The position numbers and the translations under genes were made by a program. The notes beneath the pieces are model-generated. The model made no database searches. It worked only from the letters and a program-made list of their open reading frames with translations, and was not told where the DNA came from. From Candidatus Aenigmatarchaeota archaeon (GTDB taxonomy: Archaea; Aenigmatarchaeota; Aenigmatarchaeia; QMZS01), in NCBI GenBank assembly GCA_016932615.1, contig JAFGCN010000007.1, positions 19,189-83,188 on the forward strand: a stretch of DNA of 64,000 nt. Direction: 5' to 3'. This document shows, in pieces, positions 5,622 through 38,409 of this stretch (positions are counted from its first letter, which is position 1; every line of letters begins with the position of its first letter).

Positions 5622-6155
5622 ATGAACGAAATAGTTGATAAGGTGATTGAGTTTGCGTCCAAGCACTACCAGAAATCTGACGGGATTCATGGAATAAGCC
5701 ACGCAAAAACCACCGCAAAATTCGCCGAGGTTCTTGCCAAAGCCGAAGGGGCAAATGTGGAAAATTGCGTGATGGCTGCCTGGCTTCACGACATTGCCCG
5801 GAAAAAGGAGTGGGTGGTTGAAACCCCGGAAGAAAACCACGGCGTCTGGGCAGCTCGCCTTTCAAGGCCTTTTCTTGAGTCTCTTGGGCTTTCAGGGGCA
5901 GATATTGGCGAAATCTGCACTGCACTAAGCGAGCACTGCCTCCCGGGAAAGCAGACAACGCTCGCCTCAAAAATCCTCTGGGACTCCGACAAATTAAACC
6001 ATTTTGACAAGGAGAGGGAAAAAGAGTACCTGAAATACCTAGCTAAAGAGCAGGGAACTCCTGAGAAAGCGCGCCAGACTGAGGAGAAAATAAGGGCGGG
6101 CTACATTAAGCATTTCCAGACAAAAACCGCCCGGGAACTTTCAGGCCAGAATTAG
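5622..6155 (+). CDS. HD-domain phosphohydrolase
   Basis: HGISHA ... WLHDIARK ... DSDKL motifs (H..HD..D). Confidence 0.6.
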   Translation: MNEIVDKVIEFASKHYQKSDGIHGISHAKTTAKFAEVLAKAEGANVENCVMAAWLHDIARKKEWVVETPEENHGVWAARLSRPFLESLGLSGADIGEICTALSEHCLPGKQTTLASKILWDSDKLNHFDKEREKEYLKYLAKEQGTPEKARQTEEKIRAGYIKHFQTKTARELSGQN

Positions 6156-17557: not shown

Positions 17558-19261
17558 TCAGAAATACCTTGGCTTCCTTTTGTGGTACTTGGTATGAAGA
17601 AGCTTTTCGGCTTTTTTGCTTAGCGGCTTTCCCAGGAAGTCCTTGTAAAGCGTCTGGATGTCCGGGTTGTGGCTTGAAATTCTTATGGAAAGCCCCTTAT
17701 CTTCCTTGTAAAGCGCCTCCATTCTCTTGAGCCGAATCTCATTTGTAGTGGGCCTCGGCTGACCACCGCCCCCGATGCATCCGCCAGGGCACGCCATGAC
17801 CTCGATAAAGTGATATTTCTTCCACTGCCCGCCGTCGAAAAACTTCCTGATGTTTCCTAAGGTGTGGACAATAGCAACCTTTATGCGCTCTCCGGCAATA
17901 GAAATTTCCGCTTCCCTGATTCCATCGAGCCCGCGAACAGAAGTAAAGTCCAGCTTATTCAGGGATTTTCCGGTAAGCTCCTCATAGGCAACCCTTAGCG
18001 CCGCCTCCATCACGCCGCCAGTGACTCCAAAAAGGGCGGCCCCTCCGCTTGAAGAGCCAAGCGGCGTGTCGTAATCCCCGTCAGGCAACTTTGAAAATTC
18101 TATTCCCTTGGACTTAATGACCCGACCAAGTTCCCGGGTAGTCAGAACAAGGTCAACATCCGGCGAGCCGGTTGTCCTCATTTCGGGCCTTGCCGCTTCA
18201 AGCTTCTTTGCAACGCACGGCATTATCGACGCCACGAAGATACCTTTAGCATCTTTTCCAAGAAGCTTTGCGTAGTAATTTTTGGCTACTGCCCCGAACA
18301 TCTGCTGTGGCGACTTGCATGATGAGATATGCTTAAACAGATGCGGGTAATTCTGCTCGGCAAAAACAATCCAGGAAGGGCAGCAGGAAGTAATAAGCGG
18401 CAGGTTTTTCTTCTTTTTGTACCTCTCCAGAAATTCATTTGCTTCCTCCATTATAGTAAGGTCTGCCGCAAAGTTCGTGTCAAACACCTTGTCAAAGCCA
18501 ATTTTTTTAAGGGCGGAGACCATCTTTCCCTTTACCAAAGTGCCTGGAGCCATGCCAAACATCTCGCCTAGCGACGCCCTGACCGCAGGCGCGGTCTGCA
18601 CTACATAAAACTTTTTCTTGTGCGAGATATCCAGTGCCATCTCATCTATCGTTCTTACAAGCTTTTCGCTCAGCGCCCTTTCCCGGAGAGCGGTTGTCGG
18701 GCAGTAGAGCGCGCATTGGCCGCAGAAAGTGCATGGCGATTCGAGCATCGGCGTATTGTAAGGGGTGGTTATGGATGAGCAGACGCTCCGGTTCACAACA
18801 TCAATGTTCTCTATTCCCTGAATCCTGGAGCAGACCTGGGCGCACCTTCCGCAAAGGACGCAAAGCCGGCCTTCCCGCTCCAGAGGAACCGCCCTCTTGC
18901 AGGAAGAAATGCTTGAAGAGCCAAACATTGTCTTTTCTATTCCAAGCTCCCGAAAGACCTTGGTAATCTCCACGTCATTGTCGCTATGCGCATTTCCGTG
19001 CAAAAGCTCCGCATTCAGCTTTCTTGCATCAGTCACCCGCTTCGTATGGGTCAGAACTTCCATCCCTTCCCTTACCGGAGTATTGCAAGACGTTACAAGC
19101 TTTCCGTCTGCTTCAACGATGCATATCCTGCACCGCCCTTCCGGCTTGAGGTCGGGATGGTAGCAAAGTGTAGGTATGCTTATGCCGATTCTTTTGGCAA
19201 CCTCGAGAATTGTCTCTCCATCTTTTGCAAACACCCTTTTTCCATCGATTTTTACCTGCAT
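17558..19261 (-). CDS. hydA: [FeFe]-hydrogenase catalytic subunit HydA
   Basis: N-terminal 2Fe-2S ferredoxin fold, two 4Fe-4S motifs (CVLCGRCAQVC, CTFCGQCALYCP), H-cluster motifs L1 TSCCPSW, L2 MPCVAKKLE, L3 EVMACPGGCIGGGGQP. Confidence 0.8.
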   Translation of the reverse strand: MQVKIDGKRVFAKDGETILEVAKRIGISIPTLCYHPDLKPEGRCRICIVEADGKLVTSCNTPVREGMEVLTHTKRVTDARKLNAELLHGNAHSDNDVEITKVFRELGIEKTMFGSSSISSCKRAVPLEREGRLCVLCGRCAQVCSRIQGIENIDVVNRSVCSSITTPYNTPMLESPCTFCGQCALYCPTTALRERALSEKLVRTIDEMALDISHKKKFYVVQTAPAVRASLGEMFGMAPGTLVKGKMVSALKKIGFDKVFDTNFAADLTIMEEANEFLERYKKKKNLPLITSCCPSWIVFAEQNYPHLFKHISSCKSPQQMFGAVAKNYYAKLLGKDAKGIFVASIMPCVAKKLEAARPEMRTTGSPDVDLVLTTRELGRVIKSKGIEFSKLPDGDYDTPLGSSSGGAALFGVTGGVMEAALRVAYEELTGKSLNKLDFTSVRGLDGIREAEISIAGERIKVAIVHTLGNIRKFFDGGQWKKYHFIEVMACPGGCIGGGGQPRPTTNEIRLKRMEALYKEDKGLSIRISSHNPDIQTLYKDFLGKPLSKKAEKLLHTKYHKRKPRYF

Positions 19262-20370
19262 ACTTCAAGGAATTCTTTTTTGAAATACCTGAGCGCGCAC
19301 TCAAGGTGGGTTGTCGAAAACCGCCCAAGCGTGCAGTAAGACGTGTCACGGATATCTGGCACAAGCGCCTGTATTATTTTAAGGTCAGACCTGCACGACT
19401 TCTTGTCGCGCATTTTCCTGAGCGCTTCAAGAACGCGGAAATTTCCCTCCCTGCACGGAGTGCAATAGCCGCAGGACTCATGGACAAAAAACTCGGCAAA
19501 TATCTTGGACACTTCCGGTATGCTCCGATTCTGACCCACCACGATAAGGGCTCTTGAGCCCATCATAGCGCCGGTTCCGGAAAAGCTTTTTTCATCAAAA
19601 GGCATCTTCCTGAAATTTTTGTATGGAAGGCACCCAGCCGACGCCCCAAAATAAACTGCCTTTGGCTCCTCTTTTGGCTTTCCCATTGCGATAATCTCAC
19701 CAAGGGGAGTTCCAAGCTTGGCCTCATAAACTCCCGGGGCCTGAAGGTCTCCTGAAAGGCACACAACGGTAAGCTCTGGGTTCCACGTTCCGTCAAGTAT
19801 CAGGGGAATAGTTGCCAGGGTTTCGACATTGTTGACGCAGGTAGGCCGACCATTCAGACCTGCCTGAACAGGATAAGGGGGCTTCCTTCTTACGATGGGG
19901 CGGTTTCCCTCCATGGATTCGAGAATTGCCGACTCCTCGCCGCAGAGGTACGCCCCGGCTCCAAGCACAACCGTAATCCTAAGCCCAATCTTCTTCAGCC
20001 GTGAAGAGGATTTTTTTATCTCGGCTTCAAGCTTTGGCCGAATGTAGGAATATTCCCCCCGGAGGTAAATCCACGCCCGCCGGATTCCCATTGCGTAGGC
20101 GGCAATCGCCATTCCCTCAATAAGAAGTGAAGGATTATTTTCCATTATGAACCTGTCCTTAAACGTTCCCGGCTCGCCCTCATCCGCATTGCATACAAGG
20201 TAGCGCTCGCCTTTTCCCATCGACTCCCACTTCTGTCCCGTAGGATAATTCGAGCCGCTTCTGCCGCGAAGCCCTGACTCCTTTACCAGCCCTATAACCT
20301 TTTTCGGGCTTCTCTTGAGCGCTTTTTCATAGCCCCTCCAGCAAGTGTTAGTTAGCAGTTGCATATTCAA
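19252..20370 (-). CDS. hydB: NuoF-like NADH-binding flavoprotein subunit (HydB)
   Basis: GSNYPTG...CNADEGEPGTFKDR FMN/NADH motifs; ESCGYCTPCREG 4Fe-4S motif. Confidence 0.75.
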   Translation of the reverse strand: MNMQLLTNTCWRGYEKALKRSPKKVIGLVKESGLRGRSGSNYPTGQKWESMGKGERYLVCNADEGEPGTFKDRFIMENNPSLLIEGMAIAAYAMGIRRAWIYLRGEYSYIRPKLEAEIKKSSSRLKKIGLRITVVLGAGAYLCGEESAILESMEGNRPIVRRKPPYPVQAGLNGRPTCVNNVETLATIPLILDGTWNPELTVVCLSGDLQAPGVYEAKLGTPLGEIIAMGKPKEEPKAVYFGASAGCLPYKNFRKMPFDEKSFSGTGAMMGSRALIVVGQNRSIPEVSKIFAEFFVHESCGYCTPCREGNFRVLEALRKMRDKKSCRSDLKIIQALVPDIRDTSYCTLGRFSTTHLECALRYFKKEFLEVCR

Positions 20371-20813
20371 TCAAGCCCGGCAAGAATCTGCCGTATTTTT
20401 TCCTCAGTAAGGTTCGTGTAAACCTTGCCGTCAACCATCATTGAGGGGGCCTTGTCGCACTGCCCAAGGCATGACGCCTTCTCAAGCGTGAATTTTCCGT
20501 CGGTTGTCGTATCTCCAAGCTTCACCCCCAGCTCTTTTTTAAGAAAGTCAAGAAGCGTGAAGGACTTATTCAGGTAGCAGGAAGGGCTCCCACAAACGCG
20601 TATAATATGCTGTCCGCACTTTTTTGTCGGAAGAAAAGCATAAAAGCTGGCAACCCCATAAAGCTTTGCTAAAGGCATTCCAAGGCCACGGCTTACCTTG
20701 TCAAGCTTTTCAAAAGAAACATATCCCTCCTGCCGGACAATCTCCTCAAGAACGGTTAAAAGCTCGATTTCGCCATTCCTGCAGGATTTGATGAGCAAAT
20801 CCAGTTTCCCCAT
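20367..20813 (-). CDS. hydC: NuoE-like thioredoxin-fold [2Fe-2S] subunit (HydC)
   Basis: CGSPSCY ... CLGQCDKAPSMMVDGKVY motif of NuoE/HndA. Confidence 0.75.
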   Translation of the reverse strand: MGKLDLLIKSCRNGEIELLTVLEEIVRQEGYVSFEKLDKVSRGLGMPLAKLYGVASFYAFLPTKKCGQHIIRVCGSPSCYLNKSFTLLDFLKKELGVKLGDTTTDGKFTLEKASCLGQCDKAPSMMVDGKVYTNLTEEKIRQILAGLD

Positions 20814-20877: not shown

Positions 20878-21710
20878 GTGGTCTATATTATGCTTCCTAT
20901 AACGCTTAGGCCCTGCCCCAAAAAGCATAGCTATGATCTGGACAAAGCAGAATTGCCTGAAGTTACTCTCAAAAGAGTCACTCATGCGCTGGAAACCCTG
21001 GACTCAGAAGTCAGCCTGGAAAATCTTGAAAGCAAGGAAAAACTTTGGGTGTACCGGGCAGTCTCAAAAAAATTTCTAGATATCGACCCGCCATACATCC
21101 GCTGCGGGAGGTCACACGGAAAAGGGGTGACGCAGGTACAAGCAAAATGCAGTGCCCCGATGTAGCAGGTCGAAAGAATAAATGCAAAAAACGTCATGCA
21201 GAACCTTGTAAGAGACCCGGAAACCTTGTTTGAGGCGTATGAAGGGCTCCCTAAAGAGTCGTCTATTCCAATCAGCCAACTGCTTTCCTATGGCTACCAC
21301 CCTTCATTTTACGCTCCCAATGCAGGGCAAGTCTTTAGGAAAAAGAAAATGATGTTCATGAAGGTCCACTGCCTGACAGACAAAACTGAAAAATACCTGC
21401 CGCTTTTCTGGCATCTCTATTTTTACGGAACAAATGGGTTTGCTTCCGGGAACACTTACGAAGAAGCGGTTCTTCGGGCGCTTTGCGAAGTTATCTAAAG
21501 ACATAATAAGATAGAAACCAGAAACAGGTACTTGGAAAGAAAGGAGATTTGGCTTGATTCCCACCAGGAGATTATCTCAGGTCTTCTCAGCAACCTGAAC
21601 GCCTGGGGGTTCAAGCCCATCCTTGAAGAGTGGAGCCGCCCGATACCAGTCCCCACTATCCAATGCAGACTCGGGTACAAGGCCGGATATGGCACATACC
21701 CCAAACCAAA
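20878..21710 (+). pseudogene. degraded YcaO-domain paralog (stop and frameshifts, C-terminus missing)
   Basis: Three ORF fragments (20878-21165, 21196-21498, 21532-~21710) align in order to the intact paralogs at 21966 and 25736. Fragment 1 stops at KCSAPM*, where the paralogs read KCSALMEWVER. Confidence 0.55.
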
Positions 21711-21715
21711 CTCCA

Positions 21716-21886
21716 TCAGATCTTCAAATTTATCTCCTTTAGCTTCTCACGCACAATCGGCGCGCACTCCTGGCATACCCAGCACTCATCCTTTCCAATC
21801 GAGGTCTTCTTTATTATCTGGAGCCGGCCGTTCTTTGTGGGCTTGAACCTTTGCCCGCAAAGTTCGCATTTATGAAGCTTTAGCAT
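21716..21886 (-). CDS. small zinc-ribbon protein (56 aa)
   Basis: MLKLHKCELCGQRF...ECWVCQEC; ATG 21884-21886, TGA 21716-21718; divergent from YcaO gene at 21966; below ORF-track size cut-off. Confidence 0.35.
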   Translation of the reverse strand: MLKLHKCELCGQRFKPTKNGRLQIIKKTSIGKDECWVCQECAPIVREKLKEINLKI

Positions 21887-21965: not shown

Positions 21966-23168
21966 TTGCATATATATTTTATGCAACAAATAATGCTGGA
22001 AGCTTGTCCCAAAAAATACACCTATGATCAAGACAAGGCAGAATTGCCCGAAAAAACATTGGAAAATGTACTAGGCATACTAAAAGACAGACATATAGAA
22101 GTAGAATTCAGGGAAGTCCAAAGCCTACTGGGAATCCCGTTTTACAAGTTGATGTCCACCGACCCCGAACGAAATTACTCCTCATATCTATTTTCAGGCA
22201 GCTCTTCTGGAAAAGGATCAACGCGCTTCCAGTCAAAATGCAGCGCCCTTATGGAGTGGGTCGAGCGAGTAAACGCAGGGCAAATCCCAACTAGACTACT
22301 CAACAGCGAAGAGATGGTCCATTGCAGCTATAATGAACTCTGTACAAACTCCAGAATCGCCCCGAAAGAAATGCTGTCCTACAGCTTCCACCCCTCATTT
22401 AAAAGCAATGCCTCAGAAGAGATACTGAGACATAAAAAAATGCACTACCTGAAGTTCCAGTGCCTTTCCGGACAAGAGGGGGCATACCTTCCAATATTCT
22501 GGCACCTGTATTTCAACTGCTCAAACGGACTTGCTGCAGGGAATACTTATGAGGAAGCAATCCTTCAAGCATTGTGTGAAGTCGTAGAGCGTAATAATGT
22601 CATTGAAACAAGGCTGAGAAATCTAAAATATCGAAGAGAAATAGTGCTAGATACCGATTATAAGCCCTTGAGAGATATGTCTGAGGTGCTTCACAAACAA
22701 GGAATAACCCCCATTATAGAGGACTGGAGTTGTCCGATACCAATACCTACAATGCACTGCCGATTTGGACCCAGAGCGGGCTATGGAACCAGCACTAGCC
22801 CCATAAAGTCTGCCATAAGAGCGATAACTGAAATGGTTCAGGACTATGCGATAAACGAAAAACACTGCCTTCCGCCGCAGGAAAATATAATCTATCCTCC
22901 GGCGGATAAAAAGATAGAGCTAAGCAAAATAAAAAGTCTGGAAAGGCAGGATATCCTTTCAGAGATAAAGGAAATCGTCAGCACCCTTAATTCCATGGGG
23001 TACCAGACCTATGTCAGGGACATCTCCCTACAGATACCTGTGCCTACGGTTCTGGTGGTTGTTCCTGGGCTTAAATGCTATGATTTCAGAAATCAAGAGA
23101 GGCATCTTCTGGATTTTAAGAGCAACCTTGTCCAGTATTATAACGATTACCTCATATACCTGCGCTAA
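21966..23168 (+). CDS. YcaO-domain protein
   Basis: 400 aa; SGKGSTRFQSKCSALMEWVER matches the YcaO ATP-binding signature (GKG..T...A..SAL.E..ER). Confidence 0.7.
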   Translation: MHIYFMQQIMLEACPKKYTYDQDKAELPEKTLENVLGILKDRHIEVEFREVQSLLGIPFYKLMSTDPERNYSSYLFSGSSSGKGSTRFQSKCSALMEWVERVNAGQIPTRLLNSEEMVHCSYNELCTNSRIAPKEMLSYSFHPSFKSNASEEILRHKKMHYLKFQCLSGQEGAYLPIFWHLYFNCSNGLAAGNTYEEAILQALCEVVERNNVIETRLRNLKYRREIVLDTDYKPLRDMSEVLHKQGITPIIEDWSCPIPIPTMHCRFGPRAGYGTSTSPIKSAIRAITEMVQDYAINEKHCLPPQENIIYPPADKKIELSKIKSLERQDILSEIKEIVSTLNSMGYQTYVRDISLQIPVPTVLVVVPGLKCYDFRNQERHLLDFKSNLVQYYNDYLIYLR

Positions 23169-25735: not shown

Positions 25736-26932
25736 ATGAAGCCAATCGTCCTGAAAAAATGCCTAAAGAAATATACCTACGACACCGACAAGGCAGAAAC
25801 GCCCAAAGACACTATCGGAAGAGTGACTCGGGTCCTAAAGGGGCAAGGACTAAATATCGTCTTCGAAAAGCTGGAAAACAGGGCAAATATTCCCGTCTAC
25901 CGCGTAGTTTCTGCCGATCCTTCCAAGGATTATTCTTCCCTAGTCTTTAGCGGAAAGGCGCACGGAAAAGGTGCGACTGAAAGCCAGGCGAAGTGCAGCG
26001 CTCTTATGGAGTGGGTGGAACGAGTAAATGCTGGAAACGCAATACGCCTGCTTGCAAAAGACAAGGAAACAATCTTCAGGGCTCATGAAACTATCCCTTC
26101 AGAATCCACTATAGATATCAAATATATGCTGTCTTACAGCCATAACCCTAGCTTTTATGGGAAAAGTGCAGAAAGGATTATCAAACGCAAAAAAATGCAT
26201 TTTATGAAAGCTTACTGCCTTACCGATAAACGGGAGAGATATCTACCATTTTTATGGCACCTGTACTTCAATGGGTCAAATGGGCTTGCCTCAGGAAACA
26301 CTTACGAGGAAGCTGTTCTTCAGGCGCTTTGTGAAGTTATCGAAAGACACAATATTGTGGAGATAAAGACATTAAATTCAAAAGTAAACGCTATCGAGCT
26401 AGGCTTTCCCTGCAAGCCCCTCGCAGAAATGCTTTCAAAAATCCAGGAAGTTACTGCAAGACCAATCATACAAAAGTGGAGCCGCCCGATACCAGTCCCC
26501 ACTGTCGCCTGCAGGCTACACGATAGCACTGGATACGGAACTGCTCCAAGCCCAGCAAAAGCAGCCATGAGAGCCATAACAGAAGCCATACAAGAAGATA
26601 CCGCTACGAGACGGTATGGACAAGATAGTGCCACAATCAAGATTGAGTCACAAGAGCCAATACCTCTCAGCAGTATGGAAAGCCTGGAGAGGGAAGATCT
26701 GTATGATGAGATTAATGAAATCTCAAGGATTCTTGAGTCCATGGGGCATATGATATATGTTATGGATTTCTCCTCAATCGTCCCCATACCCACTGTCGAG
26801 GTGATTGTGCCTGGACTCAGGTCTGTCGACTACACTGGAAGAGATCGCCACCTACGGGAATTTCAGTCTTGCCTTATTGAGTATTTTAACCTCGTAGCAA
26901 GCTTACCTCAGTGGAATATTTTAACCGCTTAG
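25736..26932 (+). CDS. YcaO-domain protein
   Basis: 398 aa; SGKAHGKGATESQAKCSALMEWVERVNAG signature; paralog of 21966-23168 (shared CxKKYTYDxDKAExP N-terminus). Confidence 0.7.
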   Translation: MKPIVLKKCLKKYTYDTDKAETPKDTIGRVTRVLKGQGLNIVFEKLENRANIPVYRVVSADPSKDYSSLVFSGKAHGKGATESQAKCSALMEWVERVNAGNAIRLLAKDKETIFRAHETIPSESTIDIKYMLSYSHNPSFYGKSAERIIKRKKMHFMKAYCLTDKRERYLPFLWHLYFNGSNGLASGNTYEEAVLQALCEVIERHNIVEIKTLNSKVNAIELGFPCKPLAEMLSKIQEVTARPIIQKWSRPIPVPTVACRLHDSTGYGTAPSPAKAAMRAITEAIQEDTATRRYGQDSATIKIESQEPIPLSSMESLEREDLYDEINEISRILESMGHMIYVMDFSSIVPIPTVEVIVPGLRSVDYTGRDRHLREFQSCLIEYFNLVASLPQWNILTA

Positions 26933-26992
26933 CCACTCTGCAGAATCACCTTCAGAAGAAGACTTCCATAGATACTTAACCGATAAAAATAA

Positions 26993-27183
26993 CGCTGGGG
27001 GCAAGATTTGAAATCGCGGAAAACCTCATAGCCAATTTAGCAGTAATATTCCTGCTTTGCAGGAATCTGCTTCTTTTGACGTTGAGGCATTATTCTTCCT
27101 CGGGAAGAATAAAGCTTCACTCGCGCCTCCTTGCGGAGACCAGCTTTCCAGGCTGGCGCCTTAGACCACTCGGCCACCCCAGC
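26993..27183 (-). tRNA. tRNA-Ser(GGA) with a ~107-nt intron between T-stem and T-loop (53/54)
   Basis: Minus-strand exon 1 (27183-27120): GCTGGGG-TG-GCC-GAGTGGTCTAA-GGC-G-CCAGC-CTGGAAA-GCTGG-long variable arm-GCGAG. Exon 2 (27012-26993): TTCAAAT-CTTGC-CCCCAGC-G. Acceptor arms pair perfectly; the T-stem GCGAG/CTTGC pairs with one G-U. Confidence 0.65.
27089..27112 (-). repeat. intron hairpin (TTTATTCTTCC-CGAG-GAAGAATAA) 6 nt after 5' splice site
   Basis: inverted repeat in tRNA-Ser intron, same pyrimidine-arm/purine-arm design as the other four intron hairpins. Confidence 0.55.
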
Positions 27184-27317
27184 ATAACATTAGTAGAATA
27201 GTTTCTTAAAGGGCTGAATCCGCCCCACAGGAAGCTTTGCAGAAAACCCCTTCTTTACGGCGCAGGTCCAGATTTATAGGTACGCCATTTCCCAGATAAC
27301 GCCTCCGCAAAATTTGG

Positions 27318-27962
27318 CTAATCTTGGCCGTGCTTTTGACGCTCTTTTTTCTCAAGCTCCTCGCGGATTGATTCATACTGCCCAAAATTCTTGTGAACTG
27401 TTTTTTGTAGTGGCTCTGGTTTTGGCTCTATATCGGCCTTTATCGGATTTTTTTCATAATGCCTGTATTCAAGCCGTGGGACTTTATGCTTTTTGCCTTT
27501 TACTTCCTTTTTGATTTTTGCCAATTCATTTAGGATTATCAAAAGCCCCGGAATGAATATGAAAAGCGCAAAGCCCATTGGAGTCCTTACGAAATTTCCA
27601 AGATGACCCAGGTAAGGAATACAAAATATTACTATTCCTTCAACACTGCCGGGCCGTGTTACTTCCATGTCAGGGTCCTCATTTGCATCACCCTTCGTCA
27701 AAAAGCCATCCGGCGTAACGTTTATAATCCTGTGGGTAGTGTAGGTTCCGGCGCTTCCAAAAGTAATAATGTCGCCGATTTTGAGGTCTGACGCATTTAC
27801 CCTCGCTATGGCAACAACATCCCCTACGTTAATGGCTGGAGACATCGAGCCGGAAACAACAGTCCTGAACTGAATGCCCTGGGATTGCAGGCCAAATGCA
27901 ATGAATGCTGCAAGAGCAAGAACAGCTACTGCTGCGCCAAATTTAAGTATATTGCTTGCCAT
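27318..27962 (-). CDS. signal peptidase I (archaeal/ER-type S26B; SipW-like)
   Basis: N-terminal TM, VVSGSMSP (SGSMxP catalytic Ser box), TKGDAN(E)D box; placed directly upstream of four SipW-cognate substrates. Confidence 0.8.
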   Translation of the reverse strand: MASNILKFGAAVAVLALAAFIAFGLQSQGIQFRTVVSGSMSPAINVGDVVAIARVNASDLKIGDIITFGSAGTYTTHRIINVTPDGFLTKGDANEDPDMEVTRPGSVEGIVIFCIPYLGHLGNFVRTPMGFALFIFIPGLLIILNELAKIKKEVKGKKHKVPRLEYRHYEKNPIKADIEPKPEPLQKTVHKNFGQYESIREELEKKERQKHGQD

Positions 27963-28011
27963 AATATAATATACCTCAAGTTACCCTTTCCTTTATCAGG
28001 CCTATTCAAAA

Positions 28012-29205
28012 CTACTTCTCATTTAGCGAGCTGCACTTAAAGTTAAAGTTATTGAGTCTCTGCTCAGCATAAAAAGACAAGTCTGCAATGAGCGAATCCG
28101 TCTGGGCGACATTGTTCTGGTGAGACGTTCCGTCGCACTCAGCGCTGTAGCCGCTGACGGTTATATGCCCAAAGCACCAGAGAAGGCCTACCCTCTTTGG
28201 AACATTGCTTCTAAGAACCATGTTGTTTGTCGGGTCCGCTATTGGAAAGGAGGTAACCTTGTTGCTTATTGGCCCAATGAAAAGCTTTGTGTCGCCCAGG
28301 CCGTATTTTCCATCCTTAACTGTGTCAATCCACCCAAAAAGCTCTATGAAACCGGAAAGCTCGCCCTGGTCTTCGCCCGAAGTCGTGTCGCCTGCCTCTT
28401 CTTCGGGGTCAATGAGGCCGTTTTCAAGGTCCTGTTTGTTCCTGACAACAAGGCAAGCCCATGCCTCCTGGCCACTGACTGAAATCGAAAAAAGCCCCTC
28501 ACCAGTGTCTCCCGGCTTAACGTCTTCCACTATGAAGGTCGGCTTTCCTTCGATGTCGATGCCGTACCCCCCGCATGACTCCTCAGTCAGATTAATCCGG
28601 TACAAAAGCCCTGCCGTATTCCTGGTCGGGTCGGGAAACCCAGCCCGGTTTTTAACCTTTATCTCAATTGTATTTTCTCCTGCTTTCATCCTTCCAAGAA
28701 GGTTGTAAGTGCGAACCGACCCGTAATTTGTGTTTAAAACGCTTGCGCCTACCAAAAGCCCATTGACCCTAAGCTCATAAGTGTTGTCCGCGGCGAGTTC
28801 AATCATCGCGTATTTCGGCGGAACCGTAAGAGTAACCTTTCTTACAAAAGTATAAGTCTCGTCCCGGCTGGGATTTTCAACATAATAGCTTTTCCATATC
28901 CATTTCGCTCCGGGGATGCTGGTCCAGGCGGGATTTCCGGAGTATGCCTCAACTGCGTTTTCTCCGGTTTCCTTTACGGTGTCCTCCTCACTGCTTGTGA
29001 TAATCTGGTAGCAGGCCTCCGGGTTGGGCGAAGGAAGCAGATTCACGTTAAGAGTAAATGGCTGGGATGAAAATCCACTCCCAGACATTATCGAGTCAAC
29101 TGAAAAAGCGCCGGTAACATTCTCCATGCTCCCAAAAGCCAGGGCAAGAATTCCCACTGCAAGAATGCCTGCAAAAACGACGAGATACTGGGAAGAGAGT
29201 CTCAT
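28012..29205 (-). CDS. secreted protein with SipW-cognate (TasA/camelysin-type) signal peptide
   Basis: N-terminus ...ILALAFGSMENVTGAFSVDSIMSGSG carries the TGAFxxD core of the SipW-cognate signal. Confidence 0.55.
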   Translation of the reverse strand: MRLSSQYLVVFAGILAVGILALAFGSMENVTGAFSVDSIMSGSGFSSQPFTLNVNLLPSPNPEACYQIITSSEEDTVKETGENAVEAYSGNPAWTSIPGAKWIWKSYYVENPSRDETYTFVRKVTLTVPPKYAMIELAADNTYELRVNGLLVGASVLNTNYGSVRTYNLLGRMKAGENTIEIKVKNRAGFPDPTRNTAGLLYRINLTEESCGGYGIDIEGKPTFIVEDVKPGDTGEGLFSISVSGQEAWACLVVRNKQDLENGLIDPEEEAGDTTSGEDQGELSGFIELFGWIDTVKDGKYGLGDTKLFIGPISNKVTSFPIADPTNNMVLRSNVPKRVGLLWCFGHITVSGYSAECDGTSHQNNVAQTDSLIADLSFYAEQRLNNFNFKCSSLNEK

Positions 29206-29323
29206 AAACTATCTTGAAAAACCGCCAATATATACTTTACCTCTCGTAAGTGTCCTGTAATGCTTCTGCACGCCGTCCGTTGTTTCATTCATGCAGAAAA
29301 AACAAATGGCAGAGCCGACTTGA

Positions 29324-30280
29324 TTAAGGCGATTGGCAATGCGCAATGCCCCAAAGAATTGCTTCAAGCCCGCTGTAATCCGACGCACTGAAGAAATAGG
29401 TCGTGTCGGTGGGTATGTTTGTCCTGTACCAGTCTATCCACCCGGCATTTGTCCCGACGAATACGACATATATCTTTATTCCTGCGGCCTTTGCGGCATC
29501 GGCCTGGGCTATTGCGGCGGCCTCACCCGTTCCAGGGTTGCCTGGCTTGTTGGGCATCTTGTCGGCGATAAGTATCATGTAATCCGGCGACCCGGCATCA
29601 TTTCGGTCGTTAGGTCCTGTAAGCTCAGTTGTCGCGTTCAGAAGGCCTCCGTAAAGGTTTGTGTTGCTGCCTGTGTCAAGCAGCTCTATTGCCGCGTCGA
29701 TTGCCGCCCTGTCGCCGGTTAAAATCTGGTCCAGGGTTCCCTCATCAGCATAACTTGCCTGGCCTATGTGCGGCCCATCCAGCTCTGGAGTCAGGTTATC
29801 AACAAAGGAATGAGCTGCTGCCTTTAAGGTGTCCATATCGCCGGACGTGCCTCCAGACCTTTGAAACACAAGCATCACGTCAGGCCTTGCCGAGCACATG
29901 CTTGGAAGAGTGCAGTCCGACAGGCAATTCACGCCATTATTGACGCCGTCATCGCACTCCTCAGGCCCGTTTACTGTTCCGTCGCCGCAGTATTCATCGG
30001 TTATGCATTCATCCCAAAGGCAGCTTTCTGTGCAACCCCTCATTCCGGAGTATCCTAACAGAGTTGTGCAAGAGCCCAGGTTTCCGTCGCACTCTTCGCC
30101 TTCTTCGACCTCCCCGTTTCCGCAAGAAGAAGGAAAAACTGCCGCCACCGAAAATGAATTCCCCGCAGAGCTTTCCGTGTCAGTTATAAAAGCGCCTGTC
30201 GGCTTTTCGGCCGTGCCTGAAAGGATAAGTAAAGCTAGACCAACAAACATTACACCGGCTAAAACTCTTGAACTCACCAT
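29324..30280 (-). CDS. SipW-cognate secreted protein with Myxococcus-type Cys-rich repeats and vWA domain
   Basis: PTGAFITDTESSAGNSFSVA signal; CGNGEVEEGEECD and CGDGTVNGPEECDDG repeats; vWA-like LVFQRSGGTSGD ... LIADKMPN ... IYVVFVG. Confidence 0.6.
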   Translation of the reverse strand: MVSSRVLAGVMFVGLALLILSGTAEKPTGAFITDTESSAGNSFSVAAVFPSSCGNGEVEEGEECDGNLGSCTTLLGYSGMRGCTESCLWDECITDEYCGDGTVNGPEECDDGVNNGVNCLSDCTLPSMCSARPDVMLVFQRSGGTSGDMDTLKAAAHSFVDNLTPELDGPHIGQASYADEGTLDQILTGDRAAIDAAIELLDTGSNTNLYGGLLNATTELTGPNDRNDAGSPDYMILIADKMPNKPGNPGTGEAAAIAQADAAKAAGIKIYVVFVGTNAGWIDWYRTNIPTDTTYFFSASDYSGLEAILWGIAHCQSP

Positions 30281-30409
30281 GCTTAAATATATTTAGCCGG
30301 GGATGCTATATATGCAAAGTGGTTTGTAGTGCTATTGTAATGGTTTTTGCAGACGTTCCTGCCACAGGGGGAAAACAAAAAAGCTGAAAAGTGAAAAGAA
30401 AATGTTGGA

Positions 30410-31189
30410 CTAATCTACTGGGTTGCAAAGGAATTTGCCGTTGTTTCTTGCCTGGACTACCTCAAAGGAGATGTCTGCTGTGTAGCTGTCTGTCTGGACG
30501 CTGTTGTCTATAGGCAGGCCATTGCAGTATCCATCACCTTCGATGGTTCCAAGGCACCATGCTGCGCCTATAAAGTATGTCTTGGTTGGGTCCAATGGCT
30601 CGCCATCAATTCCGCCCACGTTGTTCTCTGCTGCGTCTGCAAGAGTCCACTTGACTGTTGAAATTGCGTCTGCCGTGCCTGCTGTCAAAAGCTCATCGCA
30701 CTCCACCTGATAGATGTTGTCTCCAGGGACTGCATCGTCTTCATCATCGCAAATGTCTGCCCAAATCATGAAGTTGAGGTTTGCTCCAAGCTCTCCATCT
30801 GTATCAGACTCGCAAGTTGGCTCATCATCGATTTCTGGCTCGTTGCATCCGTTTTCATCATCGCTTGTCTTTGTAAGAACCACGCATCCCCATGCAGGGT
30901 TTGTGTCAACGTGGATGCTTATCGTGTTCTCACCATAGTCGCCGGGCTTAAGGTCTGCGTAGTTGAAAAACTTCTGTGCCTCAAGGTCAGTGAGTTCCCA
31001 GCTGCATTCCTCCTTAGGATCTCCATTGTAAGTACAGGTGCTGTCAATCAACAGGTCAATTTCTCCGGCAGTAAATGTGTTGCCCTGTGATGTCTCAGTG
31101 TCAGAGAAGAATGCTCCTGTCATGCTTCCGCCAATAGCTGCTGCTGTTAGTCCGATAACTAGTAAACTGACTAGTATTTTTGTATTCAT
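30410..31189 (-). CDS. SipW-cognate (TasA/camelysin-like) secreted protein
   Basis: MNTKILVSLLVIGLTAAAIGGSMTGAFFSDTETSQGNTFTAGEIDL matches SipW-cognate signal consensus (GAFFSD.E.S..N.F.AG.LDL). Confidence 0.65.
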   Translation of the reverse strand: MNTKILVSLLVIGLTAAAIGGSMTGAFFSDTETSQGNTFTAGEIDLLIDSTCTYNGDPKEECSWELTDLEAQKFFNYADLKPGDYGENTISIHVDTNPAWGCVVLTKTSDDENGCNEPEIDDEPTCESDTDGELGANLNFMIWADICDDEDDAVPGDNIYQVECDELLTAGTADAISTVKWTLADAAENNVGGIDGEPLDPTKTYFIGAAWCLGTIEGDGYCNGLPIDNSVQTDSYTADISFEVVQARNNGKFLCNPVD

Positions 31190-31375
31190 ATAAATAGATT
31201 GTCCTCTACAATATTTAAGGAAAAAATAATTCCATTACGCTCGTAATTGTTGGATACTTCTTGGAAGTCTTATCTGGCAGTAATTTCAAAAAATCGGGCT
31301 TAATGAATTTTATCCGGGAGTAATCAAACTGAACAGAATGAGTAAGAAAAATTAAGAGAAAAAATAAAACAAAAC

Positions 31376-32815
31376 TTAGTCGCCGTTGCTGCAGTTTGCA
31401 AGATCTTCAAGTATCTCCAGCAAGTCGTTGAAATTCCCTGCGTCAAAGTAGTATGTAGAGTCGGTTGCAATATTTGCCTTGAGCCAGTCGGCATTGTCGG
31501 TGCTAACTCCAACCCCTACGACATATATCTTTGTGCCTCTGCTATCAGCAACATCTGCCTGCGCCTTTGCCATGTTTCTTGGCGTGTCTGGGCTTGTTGG
31601 AAGGTTTGGCTCTCCATCAGTTATTATGACCATGTAGTCCGGGGAGTCTGCGTCATCCCTGTCGTAAGAGGCATCTTCAAGCTCTTGGTTTGCAAGCAAG
31701 ATTCCCTCATAAAGGTTTGTGCTTCCGCCAGGAGATACTGCATCTATTGCCGCGTCGATTGCTGTTTTGTCGCTGGTTAAGTGCAGATCAAGTGTTCCGC
31801 TTGTTGAGAAACTTGTCTGGCCCATATGCGCTCCGTCTGTTTTTGGGTCAAGGGCTGTGACAAATGCGTGGGCTGCGTTCTTCATGGTGTTCATCTCAGT
31901 TGTGTCAATGCTTGCTGATCTGTCGAGAACGGTCATCACGTCAGGCGCTGCCGCGCAGATTCCCGGAAGGGTGCAGTCATTTCGGCATTCGTCATCATTT
32001 ACGTCATTTCCGTCGTCGCATTCCTCGCCCTGTTCAAGAATTCCATTTCCGCACACCGGCTCAGTGCCTGGCACGCAAAGGAAGTTCTCATTATGCCTCT
32101 GCTGGATTGCTTCAAAGGATATGTCTGCCATTACGCTGTCTGTCTGGATGATGTTTCCTGTTTCACTGGGAACGCTCCATGCAACCGCTATGCAGTAGTT
32201 GACTCCGGGTTGGACTGGTTCTCCCGTCAGGGCATCGGCAATTGGCCAGACAAGGTCTGTTGCCTTTGCTCCCTGGACAAGGTACTCATCTATTTCTACA
32301 TCGAAGTCGTTTTCGCAGTCATAATCCCTCCAGATGTCAAAAGACAAAACATCCTGCAGTTCGCCTTCGCCTAATCCTTGGTCGCCGCAGGTGCCATCTG
32401 CCTCATCTTCCGGCTCTGTGCAGCCGTTTTCAGCGTTTGAGAGGCCGGATATTTTTGCGCAAACCCAGGCCGGGTTTGAGGTAACGTGGATGCTTATTGT
32501 GCTCTCGCCATAGTCGCCGGGCTTGACATCACCAAAATTTAGGATTGGCTGTCCGTTCAGGTCCTGGGCAAGCCATGTGCATTCGCATTCTGTTCCAGGA
32601 ACAGGGTAATCATTTCCTCCCTGCCAGGTTCCGTCAACGCACTCGTTTCCATTGTAGTGGCATTCGCTGTCTACAGTAAGGTCAATTTCTCCGGCAGTAA
32701 ATGTGTTGCCAGTTGATGTTTCCGTGTCTGAGAAGAATGCTCCAGTCATTGTGCCGCCAATAGCTATCGCTGTCAGTCCGATAACTAGTAAACTGACTAG
32801 TATTTTTGTATTCAT
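31376..32815 (-). CDS. SipW-cognate secreted protein with Myxococcus-type Cys-rich repeat and C-terminal vWA domain
   Basis: N-terminus nearly identical to 30410-31189 product; CGNGILEQGEECDDGNDVNDDEC repeat; vWA MIDAS VLDRSASI ... ITDGEPN ... IYVVGVG. Confidence 0.65.
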   Translation of the reverse strand: MNTKILVSLLVIGLTAIAIGGTMTGAFFSDTETSTGNTFTAGEIDLTVDSECHYNGNECVDGTWQGGNDYPVPGTECECTWLAQDLNGQPILNFGDVKPGDYGESTISIHVTSNPAWVCAKISGLSNAENGCTEPEDEADGTCGDQGLGEGELQDVLSFDIWRDYDCENDFDVEIDEYLVQGAKATDLVWPIADALTGEPVQPGVNYCIAVAWSVPSETGNIIQTDSVMADISFEAIQQRHNENFLCVPGTEPVCGNGILEQGEECDDGNDVNDDECRNDCTLPGICAAAPDVMTVLDRSASIDTTEMNTMKNAAHAFVTALDPKTDGAHMGQTSFSTSGTLDLHLTSDKTAIDAAIDAVSPGGSTNLYEGILLANQELEDASYDRDDADSPDYMVIITDGEPNLPTSPDTPRNMAKAQADVADSRGTKIYVVGVGVSTDNADWLKANIATDSTYYFDAGNFNDLLEILEDLANCSNGD

Positions 32816-32901
32816 ATAAATAGCTTAACTTCGGGATTATAAACATAAAACAGTTTCAATTACATGTGTAATTGATAGATACTGCCCAAAGATTAGCGGT
32901 T

Positions 32902-33465
32902 TTATCCCTTTATCAGAATCTTATTCTGTGTTGTATCGTATTTTATCCTGATGAGCGTCTGGTTTTCGATAACGCCTCCGTAGATTTCCCAGCCAATCTG
33001 GTCCTGGTCTCCGCAGTCCCCGTCATACTCGTACTCGCCCCCCAATTCATCAACGAGCAGGTAGTTTTGAAGGACTTCGCATCCGCCCTGCGTTTCCATG
33101 ACCTTGGTAAAATCGTACTCGGTCAGCCGGCCAGGGTGAGTCTTCAGAAAAACTTCGCTGCAAACAACGTCTTTTTTCTGGGCGGGTTTTATTGCATCCT
33201 GCCAGCAGATTATCGCGCGCGATGCAAGGTCAATTGCAAGCTGCTGGGTTGTCCTCGGCTCGATTTCTTCAGTCAGTCTTGAAAATCCGCTCGGCTTGCA
33301 CCAGTTCGGCTTGACGCCAATTTTTTCGGTCAGGTAGCAAAAACCGTCACTCATTGCCTGTTGGATTGTATTATTGGTAAAGGCAAGAAGAAGCGCTATT
33401 CCGACAAGCGCGATAATCATTGTCCCAACCAGGTCAAGCTCAAGGCCTTTTGCCATAATAGTCAC
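32902..33465 (-). CDS. class III signal peptide (pilin-like) protein
   Basis: MAKGLELDLVGTMIIALVGIALLLAF N-terminus. Confidence 0.4.
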   Translation of the reverse strand: MTIMAKGLELDLVGTMIIALVGIALLLAFTNNTIQQAMSDGFCYLTEKIGVKPNWCKPSGFSRLTEEIEPRTTQQLAIDLASRAIICWQDAIKPAQKKDVVCSEVFLKTHPGRLTEYDFTKVMETQGGCEVLQNYLLVDELGGEYEYDGDCGDQDQIGWEIYGGVIENQTLIRIKYDTTQNKILIKG

Positions 33466-33487
33466 TAATAATATTCAATAAGCAAAG

Positions 33488-34405
33488 TTATCGCTTGGAG
33501 TCCAGGGACTGGTGAACTAGTATCGGCTCTTCCTTCTCCAGGACATATGTGTATGAAGTCGTGATTTTGAGCGTAAGCTCTACGTCCTGGCCGGAGCTAA
33601 GGTGTGGCGGAGAAATCTTGACAATGCAGTCTCCGGTCTTTCCTCCGCGGAGCCGAGCATTCCTGCACTCGCTGGTGTCAACGCTCCCGACAAGGTTTTG
33701 CCCAAGTGACTCGACTTTGACAGAATCTATCGTAAACTCCCTTGGGTCAGAAGTGTCTCCCTGCGGGTATCCATTATCGATATTTGTAAACTTAAGCGTA
33801 ACTGGAATCTTGTCGTTCGAGCCGCCCACAATGAAAACGTTATCCATCAAGACATCCACGACAATCGGCGCCCTGGAGTTTGAAATTGTCTTTGCCGTAT
33901 CCGGCATAACGCCACGCTCGCGCATCCCCTTGTAGGCATCTTCAGTAAGCGCGTAAACCTTGGCGGTTGTTATGGTTGCATAATCGTAATATATCCTAAC
34001 TCCAGCAGTATAGGTCTCAGTTTCCCCAATCTCCGGAACCCGGACGTTTTTCCAGGTAATTGTGCACGGGTCGCCAATCCGGTTAAGCTCCTCGTTAGGG
34101 GGGTAAAGCTGCGGCTGATTGCACCTCTGCTCGCTTGAGTAGCCAACCCAGGAAAGCCGATAGGGCTTTGCAACAACATTTTCTATGGTCGTGTCACCCA
34201 GGTTCTGAACCTTCAGGACAATGTCTATGGTATCACCGGAACTCACATAGTCATACCCTGAGCCAAAGTCAATAATAGAAAGGCCGCTTCCGTAAGTAAT
34301 GGGCTCATTGTTTGAGCCACCAAAAGACGTGCAGCCGCTTGTTGCCACAACCAGGAGCATCATGAATCCAGCAAAAAAGATATTTTTCATGCTACTATTC
34401 ATCAT
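33488..34405 (-). CDS. secreted protein, paralog of 34395-35282 (possible lipoprotein, SGCT after signal peptide)
   Basis: Signal peptide plus SGCT; shares VVAKP..L.W.G...E..C / YYDY / PVTLKFTN blocks with the adjacent gene. Confidence 0.4.
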   Translation of the reverse strand: MMNSSMKNIFFAGFMMLLVVATSGCTSFGGSNNEPITYGSGLSIIDFGSGYDYVSSGDTIDIVLKVQNLGDTTIENVVAKPYRLSWVGYSSEQRCNQPQLYPPNEELNRIGDPCTITWKNVRVPEIGETETYTAGVRIYYDYATITTAKVYALTEDAYKGMRERGVMPDTAKTISNSRAPIVVDVLMDNVFIVGGSNDKIPVTLKFTNIDNGYPQGDTSDPREFTIDSVKVESLGQNLVGSVDTSECRNARLRGGKTGDCIVKISPPHLSSGQDVELTLKITTSYTYVLEKEEPILVHQSLDSKR

Positions 34406-35282
34406 CCTCCAAGCTGGGGTTTACGGTAATCGTCTGCTTCTCTTCTATCGCATAGCTGTACTTAGAGACAATCCTTATGTCCGCCACTATTTCGTCTGTT
34501 GTACTCGAAGGCACCTCAAGCCAGAAAATGCAGTCTCCTGACGCTCCCCCCCTCATAGGTATTTCGCTTCCGCAGTTTCCTAAGTCATCAATTCTCATGC
34601 CGCCGCTTCTTTCAAGGTTCACCTCTACAGAATCAATCTGGTAGCTTCTTGCGTCCCCATCAAATGACTGAGGGTAGCCGCTAGCAGCGTTTGTAAACTT
34701 AAGGTTAACCGGAACTCTCTTTGTTCCGGAGGTTGGAATAATTATTACGCTGTCTATTGAAACGCTCACCTGAATAGGCCCATTAGTGTTCGAAATTGTC
34801 TTTGCCATTGGCACTTCGCCTCTCTCCTTAAGCCCTGCAAATTGCCTTGCGCTTATTGCAAACACTTGGGCACTTGTTTCAGTGGAATAATCATAATAGA
34901 ATCGAACGCCCACAGGGAAAGTCTCCTGGGTCTGTACCTTTGGAACTCTTATGCCCCTCCAGCTTACATAGCACGGCTGGCCTTGCCTTTCAAGGTCGGA
35001 TTTTGGGGGGTAAAGCTCGTCGCAGGTTCTCTCCTGGTTAAAGCCATCCCATGGAAGGTAGATTGGCTTTGCTACTACATGGTCTATTTTCCGGTCGCCC
35101 AGGTTTGTCGCCTGGGCCTCAATTGAAATGCTGTCGCCCGACATAACATAATTGTAGCTTGGGCGCACATAATCAATAGAAAGCCCCGTGCCGCCGCCAG
35201 CCCCGCCATCAGAATCAGAATTCGTACATCCGCTTAATGACACCACCAGCAGAAGAGAAAATATCAGCCAGGTGTTCTTCAT
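34395..35282 (-). CDS. secreted protein, paralog of 33488-34405
   Basis: signal peptide + SGCT; tandem paralog, 11-nt overlap. Confidence 0.4.
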   Translation of the reverse strand: MKNTWLIFSLLLVVSLSGCTNSDSDGGAGGGTGLSIDYVRPSYNYVMSGDSISIEAQATNLGDRKIDHVVAKPIYLPWDGFNQERTCDELYPPKSDLERQGQPCYVSWRGIRVPKVQTQETFPVGVRFYYDYSTETSAQVFAISARQFAGLKERGEVPMAKTISNTNGPIQVSVSIDSVIIIPTSGTKRVPVNLKFTNAASGYPQSFDGDARSYQIDSVEVNLERSGGMRIDDLGNCGSEIPMRGGASGDCIFWLEVPSSTTDEIVADIRIVSKYSYAIEEKQTITVNPSLEDDE

Positions 35283-35336
35283 AATATAACCATATCTATA
35301 TATAAAAGATAAAACAATTCAAAATATCAAAATCAA

Positions 35337-36350
35337 CTAAGGCGTGTCTACTGGCGCGCATTCCGGCTCATCGAGCGTGAAGGTCATCTTTATGTTCCAC
35401 TCCATTGGCTTTCCGTCTTCACCGCCCAAAGGAATAAACTTGTGGTCTGCAAGGTAGATATTTATCGAATGAGGGTCGCCTCCCTGAAGTAAAAGAGGGC
35501 TCATGCACATCTCCTCCTGTTTCTTCCTGATGCAATCGGTGTGTGGCGATGAAAGCTCGGTTATCTTGCATTCTACGTATTCGGGGTTGTCCGGGTCAAG
35601 CTTCTTCTTGAGGTCCTCGCAGAGGTCGTCGTAAGCGATCTTAAGCTTGGTAAGCTCGTCCTCTGGGCAGTTTCCCGCCATGGAAGCAGACATTATCCTT
35701 ATTGGGTTGTTCTTCTCGAACTCTTTACTGAGCACGTTGTAGAAGTGGGTGGACCTTATTGGGCCGATGTCATTAACGTTGAGGGCTCCGTTATAATTGG
35801 TCCTTACAGGGTCTGTTACCTCTATAAGCTCATCCGGAAGGCCCGAGCCAAAGTAGTTGCAGTTGAGGTGATTGCATCCCGAAAGCTCTGGAAGAGTGAC
35901 TCCTACGCACTCCGGGTCCGAAACAGAGATGCCTTTTTCTGCCAATACCGGCTGCTTGTTTAGCGCCTCTACATAGGCAGTCATATACTGAAGCGAATTT
36001 GTGCCTATTGCCGCTTTAAACTCATTTGGAGTAACCGGCTGAGCGACATTGTTGCAGCACCAGTAGGTGTCGGGGTTTGTCGTGCCGCCGTTCTTCGTTA
36101 TGTCCATTACCCCATTCAATGTGCTAAACCTTAAGTCCTGAAGGACCATTGATTTTGTTATCTCAAGCTTCTCCGTAGCCCTGTCCTGGTCAATCTTCTG
36201 AGAGCTGCTTTCCGCAAGCCCGGAGCCCATGGAAGACTGGTAGCTAAGAGCTCCAAGAACTCCAAGAACTCCGACCAATGCAATTATCGCAACCACTGAG
36301 TATGCCACGCCTTTCCTGTGTTTCATTAAGCTAGACATAATAGTATTCAC
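35337..36350 (-). CDS. class III signal peptide (pilin-like) protein
   Basis: MKHRKGVAYSVVAIIALVGVLGVLGA N-terminus. Confidence 0.4.
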   Translation of the reverse strand: MNTIMSSLMKHRKGVAYSVVAIIALVGVLGVLGALSYQSSMGSGLAESSSQKIDQDRATEKLEITKSMVLQDLRFSTLNGVMDITKNGGTTNPDTYWCCNNVAQPVTPNEFKAAIGTNSLQYMTAYVEALNKQPVLAEKGISVSDPECVGVTLPELSGCNHLNCNYFGSGLPDELIEVTDPVRTNYNGALNVNDIGPIRSTHFYNVLSKEFEKNNPIRIMSASMAGNCPEDELTKLKIAYDDLCEDLKKKLDPDNPEYVECKITELSSPHTDCIRKKQEEMCMSPLLLQGGDPHSINIYLADHKFIPLGGEDGKPMEWNIKMTFTLDEPECAPVDTP

Positions 36351-36402
36351 AAGAGAATATATATAGGTAATGCCTAATGACTCTACTCTGGAACTTTAAG
36401 CG

Positions 36403-38408: not shown

Positions 38409-38409
38409 G

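Follow-up and report, generated by a model that had tools for sequence, protein, structure and literature searches.

Positions 26993-27183 of the window, by which we mean the whole 64,000-nucleotide stretch of archaeal DNA that was analysed, pose the question of whether a tRNA gene whose T-arm is interrupted by 107 nt is functional and, if so, how the interruption could be removed. An earlier note had described the locus as a type-II tRNA-Ser(GGA) gene in which an intron of 107 nt at position 53/54 separates the T-stem from the T-loop. This description was backed by a BHB motif at the junctions, by splicing in silico and by four orthologues, and the locus is very probably a genuine, functional tRNA-Ser(GGA) gene with a non-canonical BHB intron. 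Its interest derives mainly from the wider pattern that was reached via this gene.

The genome belongs to Archaea; Nanobdellati (DPANN); Candidatus Aenigmatarchaeota. The nearest named relatives of its aCPSF1/FttA protein are 70-74% identical and labelled Candidatus Aenigmarchaeota, as are most sequences of the ~50% tier. The clade of the window forms a distinct group with FttA identities of 67-84%, below which identity drops to ~52%.

The tRNA-Ser(GGA) gene lies on the minus strand with its 5' end at 27183, and the limits 26993-27183 are exact. The Rfam tRNA model RF00005 covered 27183 to 26993 end to end (37.9 bits, gathering score 29), and its alignment contained a single long insertion, located before the T-loop. 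ARAGORN did not detect any tRNA in the unspliced 64-kb window. When the 107 nt at 27013-27119 were excised in silico, the program called a tRNA-Ser(gga) of 84 nt, the cloverleaf of which has a 7-nt T-loop and the G53-C61 pair. The gene consists of the following parts:

27120-27183, minus strand: exon 1, positions 1-53, from the acceptor 5' strand to the T-stem 5' strand, including D-arm, anticodon arm and variable arm (Rfam alignment; ARAGORN after splicing)
27013-27119, minus strand: BHB intron of 107 nt at position 53/54 (BHB register, fold, orthologous introns at the same site)
26993-27012, minus strand: exon 2, positions 54-73, with T-loop UUCAAAU, T-stem 3' strand, acceptor 3' strand and G73 (Rfam; ARAGORN)

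The D-stem, anticodon, variable arm, T-stem, T-loop and paired acceptor that had been read from the sequence were all recovered with Rfam and ARAGORN. The acceptor stem is GCUGGGG/CCCCAGC, the D-stem GCC/GGC and the T-stem GCGAG/CUUGC; the variable arm has a 4-bp stem, and the discriminator is G73. Hence the cloverleaf and the sequence contain what distinguishes a type-II tRNA-Ser, namely (i) a long variable arm, (ii) a 3-bp D-stem, (iii) a serine anticodon, here GGA, and (iv) G73. Exon 2 does not encode CCA, is present as a single copy in the window and is identical in all five orthologous genes described below.

Position 53/54 is non-canonical, as had been claimed, but it is an already documented intron position in archaea; non-canonical BHB introns, those at 53/54 included, are textbook knowledge for some archaea (PMC4090602). 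Since GCGA is found at both ends of the intron, the sequence by itself does not define the splice junction. Every junction pair was therefore scored for a BHB motif, that is, for a 4-bp helix H between two 3-nt bulges, each cut after its second nucleotide. In the register that cuts after G53 and after intron nucleotide 107 and joins G53 to U54, H is CGCG/CGCG, the bulges are AGU and AUU, helix h' has 4+3 bp, and helix h has 2 bp:

27122-27125, minus strand: exon strand of the central helix H (C48 G49 C50 G51), paired with intron nucleotides 102-105
27015-27018, minus strand: intron strand of the central helix H, CGCG
27115-27118, minus strand: 5' strand of helix h', GAAG (intron nucleotides 2-5), paired with CUUU at 27019-27022

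Both splice sites thus lie inside 3-nt bulges with a 4-bp helix between them, as in archaeal BHB motifs, and excision restores a canonical tRNA (ARAGORN). Of all registers, only 53/54 and 54/55 retain the conserved pair G53-C61, and 54/55 disrupts H. By simple arithmetic, the chance of finding ten specified pairs at the one junction pair that restores the tRNA is about 0.375^10, or roughly 5e-5. In ten related introns, 73 of the 80 cells representing H and the first 4 bp of h' were paired in the proposed register, as compared to 20-44 when one junction was slid; H comprises 3-4 bp in all ten. The GCGA repeat at the two junctions of the Ser intron follows from the palindromic central helix CGCG. 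Its interpretation as the target-site duplication of a MITE was rejected since the repeat is the product of this helix, and other introns are devoid of it.

The Ser intron alone is predicted to form two stable hairpin domains with a minimum free energy (MFE) of -38.9 kcal/mol (z = -5.15; none of 200 shuffled sequences folded as well), and its unpaired ends are exactly the segments that h' and H need. With the tRNA body, H and h' enforced, the precursor folded at -77.1 kcal/mol vs an unconstrained MFE of -82.4 kcal/mol, i.e., the splicing-competent BHB fold lies ~5 kcal/mol above the MFE, and the hairpins of the intron were retained. Helix h of the Ser intron is minimal, consisting of a G-U pair and one G-C pair, the latter of which competes with the variable-arm stem. 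As h has only 2 bp while h' is good, the motif is relaxed, and a splicing endonuclease of broad specificity is to be expected; one of strict specificity might cut the Ser precursor poorly. Broad-specificity EndA has been reported in DPANN (PMC5829648).

By analogy to established archaeal tRNA splicing, which provides the enzymes and the order of events, a tRNA-Ser(GGA) precursor of ~191 nt would be transcribed from its own TATA-type promoter. In this precursor, the 5' strand of the T-stem (positions 48-51) would pair with the 3' end of the intron instead of its mature partner, resulting in the 4-bp BHB helix with the splice sites in two 3-nt bulges and its prolongation by h' between the intron ends. 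The archaeal tRNA splicing endonuclease (EndA) would then cut both bulges, after G53 and after intron nucleotide 107, and an RtcB-type ligase would join GGCGCGAG of exon 1 to UUCAAAUC of exon 2 and probably circularise the intron. The T-arm would form only after splicing because positions 48-51 are sequestered in H of the precursor; finally, CCA would be added. Neither an EndA gene nor an RtcB gene was present among the ORFs of the 64-kb window.

Several searches for related genes were performed. An exact 32-mer of the tRNA had no match in species-representative genomes, and a degenerate pattern comprising D-arm and anticodon loop matched at least 120 loci therein, all of them bacterial among the matches listed. 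The D-arm GCCGAGYGGTYTAAGGCG together with the anticodon loop CUGGAAA occurs in exact form in tRNA-Ser(GGA) genes of many bacteria, which among the matches listed (L003-L122) include Gemmatimonadota, Alphaproteobacteria, Nostoc and Bacteroidota. Being common to many bacteria, this combination is useless as a lineage marker. A synteny search via the adjoining YcaO gene did not reveal a close orthologue outside this genome (the next best match was a paralogue with 47% identity), and the contig of the window recurs once in public assemblies, as an 18-kb Logan contig. A metagenome scan with the lineage-specific anticodon arm yielded 23 loci, four of which (L133, L136, L141 and L134) contain the same tRNA-Ser(GGA).

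In all four orthologues an intron is located at exactly 53/54, with a length of 163 nt in L133, 140 nt in L136, 149 nt in L141 and 46 nt in L134. The exon ends are identical; the exons of L133, L136 and L141 differ from those of the window at two nucleotides only, both in the D-loop, and L134 has a further difference in the loop of the variable arm. The BHB motif is retained in all four, and the first pair of h' in the five Ser(GGA) genes compared is G-C, G-C, C-G, C-G and G-U, that is, it has undergone compensatory change. L133 is syntenic with the window in that the peptidase adjoining the tRNA gene is 50% identical and camelysin/VWA genes are present; in L134, another gene of the same neighbourhood is 48% identical. 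Site and motif are thus kept in the five orthologues while the intron sequence drifts. Near-invariant exons and splice motif despite ~50% identity of the neighbouring proteins therefore indicate purifying selection and not decay, with drift confined to the interior of the intron. No tRNA-Ser was found on the contigs of four peptidase orthologues (L146-L149). On L146, the slot downstream of the peptidase orthologue, which tRNA-Ser occupies in the window, lacks recognisable tRNA exons and contains a 180-aa ORF with a faint LAGLIDADG_3 match (2743-3285, minus strand).

Two further tRNA genes, which are absent from the earlier note, were found in the window via an intron module described below. 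Both had been missed in unspliced form by ARAGORN and by Rfam, even at E<=1:

314-601, plus strand: tRNA-Arg(UCU) gene with two introns (found via the intron module; BHB at both junctions)
353-427, plus strand: intron of tRNA-Arg(UCU), 75 nt, canonical position 37/38, perfect hBHBh'
445-582, plus strand: intron of tRNA-Arg(UCU), 138 nt, position 54/55
1946-2237, plus strand: tRNA-Thr(UGU) gene with two introns (found via the intron module)
1966-2117, plus strand: intron of tRNA-Thr(UGU), 152 nt, D-loop position 20/21
2157-2223, plus strand: intron of tRNA-Thr(UGU), 67 nt, T-loop position 59/60

After splicing in silico, ARAGORN called a tRNA-Arg(tct) of 75 nt and a tRNA-Thr(tgt) of 73 nt. All three tRNA genes found in the window are accordingly disrupted, by five introns in total, and more genes are possible. 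A similar organisation was observed in relatives. L150, whose FttA is 80% identical, contains a tRNA-Ser(UGA) gene (21211-21535, minus strand) that was not detected by standard tools and is split at three sites, by a D-loop intron of 32 nt, a 37/38 intron of 106 nt and a 53/54 intron of 103 nt; the module is present in two of these three introns. Read along the tRNA strand, the Ser(GGA) gene of L134 starts ~124 nt before the pattern match. It has a second intron of 101 nt in the D-loop that carries the module, and its 46-nt intron at 53/54 is devoid of it. Judged from the sequences, this looks like the copying of the module to a new site combined with an internal deletion at the old one.

ARAGORN did not call a tRNA in ~130 kb from relatives, nor did Rfam at the gathering score. 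For the window (~64 kb) and the relatives (~130 kb) together, ARAGORN thus reported no tRNA and Rfam one, where at least four to eight genes are present. Every tRNA gene seen in the lineage is split by introns. Ser(GGA) genes are likewise disrupted in other uncultivated lineages that share the anticodon arm (L135, L123, L125, L131, L140). The gene of L135 has D-loop and variable-arm introns of an unrelated intron family, and high-GC loci sharing the anticodon arm have introns of ~29-50 nt inside the T-loop, around 59/60.

Putative transcription signals flank the Ser gene:

27202-27211, minus strand: TATA-like box CTTTAAGAAA, ending 18 nt upstream of the tRNA +1 (putative promoter element)
26983-26992, minus strand: T-rich trailer TTATTTTTAT, likely transcription stop (read from the sequence)

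The upstream regions compared were 27184-27211 (minus strand), 269-313 (plus strand) and 1901-1945 (plus strand) of the window and those of L133, L134, L136 and L141. The CTTTAAGAAA box was located 18-19 nt upstream of +1 in all five Ser(GGA) orthologues. A TATA-like box at this distance was present in six of the seven genes, the exception being the Arg gene with a box ~5 nt closer. TTAT directly precedes +1 in 7/7 genes and TTTAT in 6/7. A T-rich trailer follows six of the seven and is weak in L134, and CCA is not encoded in any of the five Ser(GGA) genes. With the TATA-like box at a fixed distance, the start of transcription may coincide with the mature 5' end or lie very close to it, in which case the tRNAs would be leaderless. 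Such tRNAs have been reported for Nanoarchaeum.

The introns themselves turned out to be related. Ser introns share a 5' module, which is composed of a pyrimidine-rich/purine-rich hairpin and an A-rich motif of the form CAAAAGAAAG. In the Ser intron of the window it was found with covariance model R1:

27060-27113, minus strand: shared module, pyrimidine/purine hairpin followed by the A-rich motif CAAAAGAAG (R1, 45.5 bits)

An nhmmer profile made from Ser introns alone detected the Arg introns (E = 6e-4) and the Thr introns (E = 2e-4). When R1 was applied to the 64 kb, the five introns of the window scored 34.7-58.1 bits and nothing else exceeded 18 bits, i.e., there were no copies outside the three tRNA genes. 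In L150, R1 revealed two new copies (38-42 bits), both inside tRNA-Ser(UGA). Pairwise identities far above those of shuffled sequences were obtained for the Arg intron at 54/55 with the Thr intron at 59/60 (38/42) and with the 53/54 introns of L133 (90/106) and L136 (95/123), and for the 53/54 intron of L141 with the first ~45 nt of the L134 D-loop intron (41/44). Significantly similar introns thus reside in different tRNA species and at different positions, as expected of one intron family. The hairpin and a long-range helix of 13 bp are common to the long introns, and compensatory changes have occurred at some of the pairs, four of eight in the case of the hairpin. What the introns retain across genes, positions and genomes is the module; the remainder of each diverges. 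Taken together, the introns of the lineage are long, strongly structured and related in sequence, measure 46-163 nt in the Ser 53/54 orthologues and occupy positions 20/21, 37/38, 53/54, 54/55 and 59/60. The simplest explanation of this pattern would be that one ancestral intron was duplicated or transposed to several genes and sites.

The persistence of the module raises the possibility, a rather unlikely one, that the Ser intron is spliced as proposed and that the hairpin and A-rich motif, in their rod-like fold, have a function of their own, be it as a stable and possibly circular RNA, as a scaffold for protein binding or folding that presents the BHB motif, or as a mobility element. Its maintenance across genes, positions and genomes while other parts of the introns diverge, the compensatory changes in the hairpin, the long-range helix of the long introns, the superior folding of the Ser intron relative to shuffles (z = -5.15) and the absence of the module from the other 63 kb of the window are all consistent with such a role. 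However, the module corresponds to no Rfam family, has neither a C/D-box arrangement nor coding capacity, and had no copies in viral contigs (0 matches with two patterns); recent common ancestry alone could explain the similarity. The tRNA model apart, no Rfam family touched the tRNA-Ser(GGA) region at E<=1, which excludes recognisable group I and group II introns and known small RNAs at this locus. A reading of the introns as box C/D guide RNAs was discarded, as the Ser intron lacks C (RUGAUGA) and D (CUGA) boxes and had no Rfam match; UGAUGA and CUGA look-alikes in the Arg intron at 37/38 and the Thr intron at 59/60 are strands of h' and H.

Rather doubtful, too, is the further-reaching idea of a BHB-intron family that is still active and mobile at the RNA level, or of a module that gives the excised RNA a cellular role. 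The functional core would be the pyrimidine/purine hairpin with its GNRA-like loop and the A-rich motif in a rod-like fold, and would allow the excised circular intron to enter conserved loops of tRNAs again; one conceivable route is reverse splicing with subsequent reverse transcription or recombination. In one genome the module resides at 53/54, and another genome has it in the D-loop of the orthologous gene. If true, the family would offer the first tractable natural before-and-after series for the spread of protein-spliced introns.

It is very improbable that the tRNA-Ser gene was inactivated by 107 nt of unrelated or mobile DNA and is never spliced. The failure of standard finders and the modest Rfam score could be taken as signs of a pseudogene, but the exons are near-invariant in five genomes whose neighbouring proteins are ~50% identical, the BHB motif is in exact register in all five and shows compensatory changes, and the promoter and terminator signals are conserved. 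In addition, all tRNA genes seen in the lineage are organised alike and therefore cannot all be pseudogenes. This explanation is thus already largely refuted, and we retain a functional gene with a spliced BHB intron.

Genes for tRNAs are common targets of integration. The earlier note had placed the Ser gene at an integration hotspot, so that the adjoining 'surface island' would be an element integrated at a tRNA attachment site. Apart from the general preference for tRNA genes, the genes without Pfam match at 32902-40905 speak in favour of this idea. However, the hallmarks of a tRNA-targeted element, an integrase and a direct repeat of the tRNA 3' end, were both missing: no copy of the 3' exon was present in the window, even when three mismatches were allowed, repeats of >=13 nt from the tRNA gene or its flanks were not found, and a scan of 49 larger ORFs from all parts of the window revealed no integrase. 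The G+C content is flat with no shift in composition, and the only local direct repeats are those of YcaO and VWA/camelysin paralogues. Moreover, the island is located beyond the 5' end of the tRNA gene and not beyond its 3' end, and has counterparts in relatives at ~50% identity: the peptidase and camelysin/VWA genes are syntenic with tRNA-Ser in L133, as is another island gene in L134. The hotspot claim was therefore abandoned; an integrated element has very little probability.

The island itself is a same-strand run (27318-40905, minus strand) that encodes a SipW-like signal peptidase, proteins with camelysin/TasA-like N-termini and VWA proteins, followed by seven proteins of 187-831 aa without Pfam match. 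Synteny with L133 and L134 extends over part of this run, which is probably a secreted-filament or surface gene cluster. On the other side of the tRNA gene are three YcaO paralogues (20878-21846, 21966-23168 and 25736-26932) with common repeated segments (families D1, D3, D4 and D7). The first of them may be a decaying copy because it appears broken into ORFs of ~100 aa. A [FeFe]-hydrogenase large subunit and NuoF-like and NuoE-like partners are encoded at 17558-20813 (minus strand) in this DPANN-labelled genome, and the same trio occurs in L150. A complete archaeal 16S rRNA gene is located at 53182-54636 (plus strand); neither a 23S rRNA gene nor a tRNA gene accompanies it anywhere in the window, and the rRNA genes are therefore unlinked. 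Other ORFs of the window code for ribosomal protein S19e, TYW3 and Trm5/TYW2. In L150, positions 1-5631, upstream of the FttA neighbourhood, contain the type I CRISPR-Cas genes Cas3, Cas5, Cas7/DevR and Cas6 and an Rfam match to DUF3800-X RNA (47.4 bits); the corresponding part of the window has none of them.

Group I introns occur in bacterial tRNA genes. Although they have also been described in archaea according to one account (PMC6125680), a self-splicing group I or group II intron is hardly conceivable here, as a catalytic core would not fit into 107 nt, none of the intron families of Rfam matched at E<=1, and the junctions fit a BHB motif instead.

For the spliced tRNA-Ser(GGA) gene and its counterparts, a practical consequence arises from the failure of standard finders on split tRNA genes: genomes of this clade will look poor in tRNAs and will not pass quality criteria based on tRNAs, unless intron-aware models are trained on the clade. 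The training sets of published BHB models came from Crenarchaeota, Euryarchaeota and Thaumarchaeota (PMC8450103). With these genes, a DPANN phylum joins the short list of groups with a heavy tRNA intron load (Thermoproteales, some Asgard archaea). Homologous long introns at differing sites, with orthologous genes that do not agree in the location of the module, provide material for studies on the gain and movement of BHB introns. A literature search for tRNA introns of Aenigmatarchaeota did not yield any report.

[quoted passage not shown] The Ser intron resembles it in length, in its BHB junctions and in the structured RNA of its interior but is located off 37/38 and has no C/D arrangement. 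In other DPANN, EndA of the epsilon2 type (ARMAN-2/Micrarchaeota) and of the alpha4 type with L3 loop (other DPANN) as well as the split tRNAs of Nanoarchaeum have been described (PMC5829648, PMC3239211). Those archaea and the present lineage have in common that tRNA genes are disrupted to an increased extent, that BHB motifs are relaxed and that standard prediction gives incomplete tRNA sets, whereas the genes studied here are cis-spliced and not split, and Aenigmatarchaeota are outside the scope of these two studies. Nearly all tRNA genes of the Asgard archaea Atabeyarchaeia and Freyarchaeia contain introns (PMC11291895); like the genes reported here, they belong to uncultivated archaea and are intron-laden, frequently with more than one intron in a gene and at sites other than the canonical one, but in a different lineage.

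The closest parallel in intron relationships is found in Thermoproteales, where related introns in different tRNAs underlie the transposition model and multi-intron genes were described (PMC4033280); the model of 'large-scale intron transposition' goes back to Sugahara 2008 and Fujishima 2010 as summarised in PMC4033280 and PMC4090602. In both groups, BHB introns reside at many positions including 53/54, a single gene may contain as many as three, detection of the genes is difficult, and similar introns occur in different tRNA species and positions. Archaeal tRNA introns are mostly <100 nt according to a review (PMC4033280). Unlike those of Thermoproteales, the introns described here belong to the phylum Aenigmatarchaeota (DPANN), are much longer (46-163 nt) and share a defined structured module rather than just short similarity. 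What is less usual in the present lineage is thus the intron length, up to 163 nt at non-canonical sites, together with the shared structured module.
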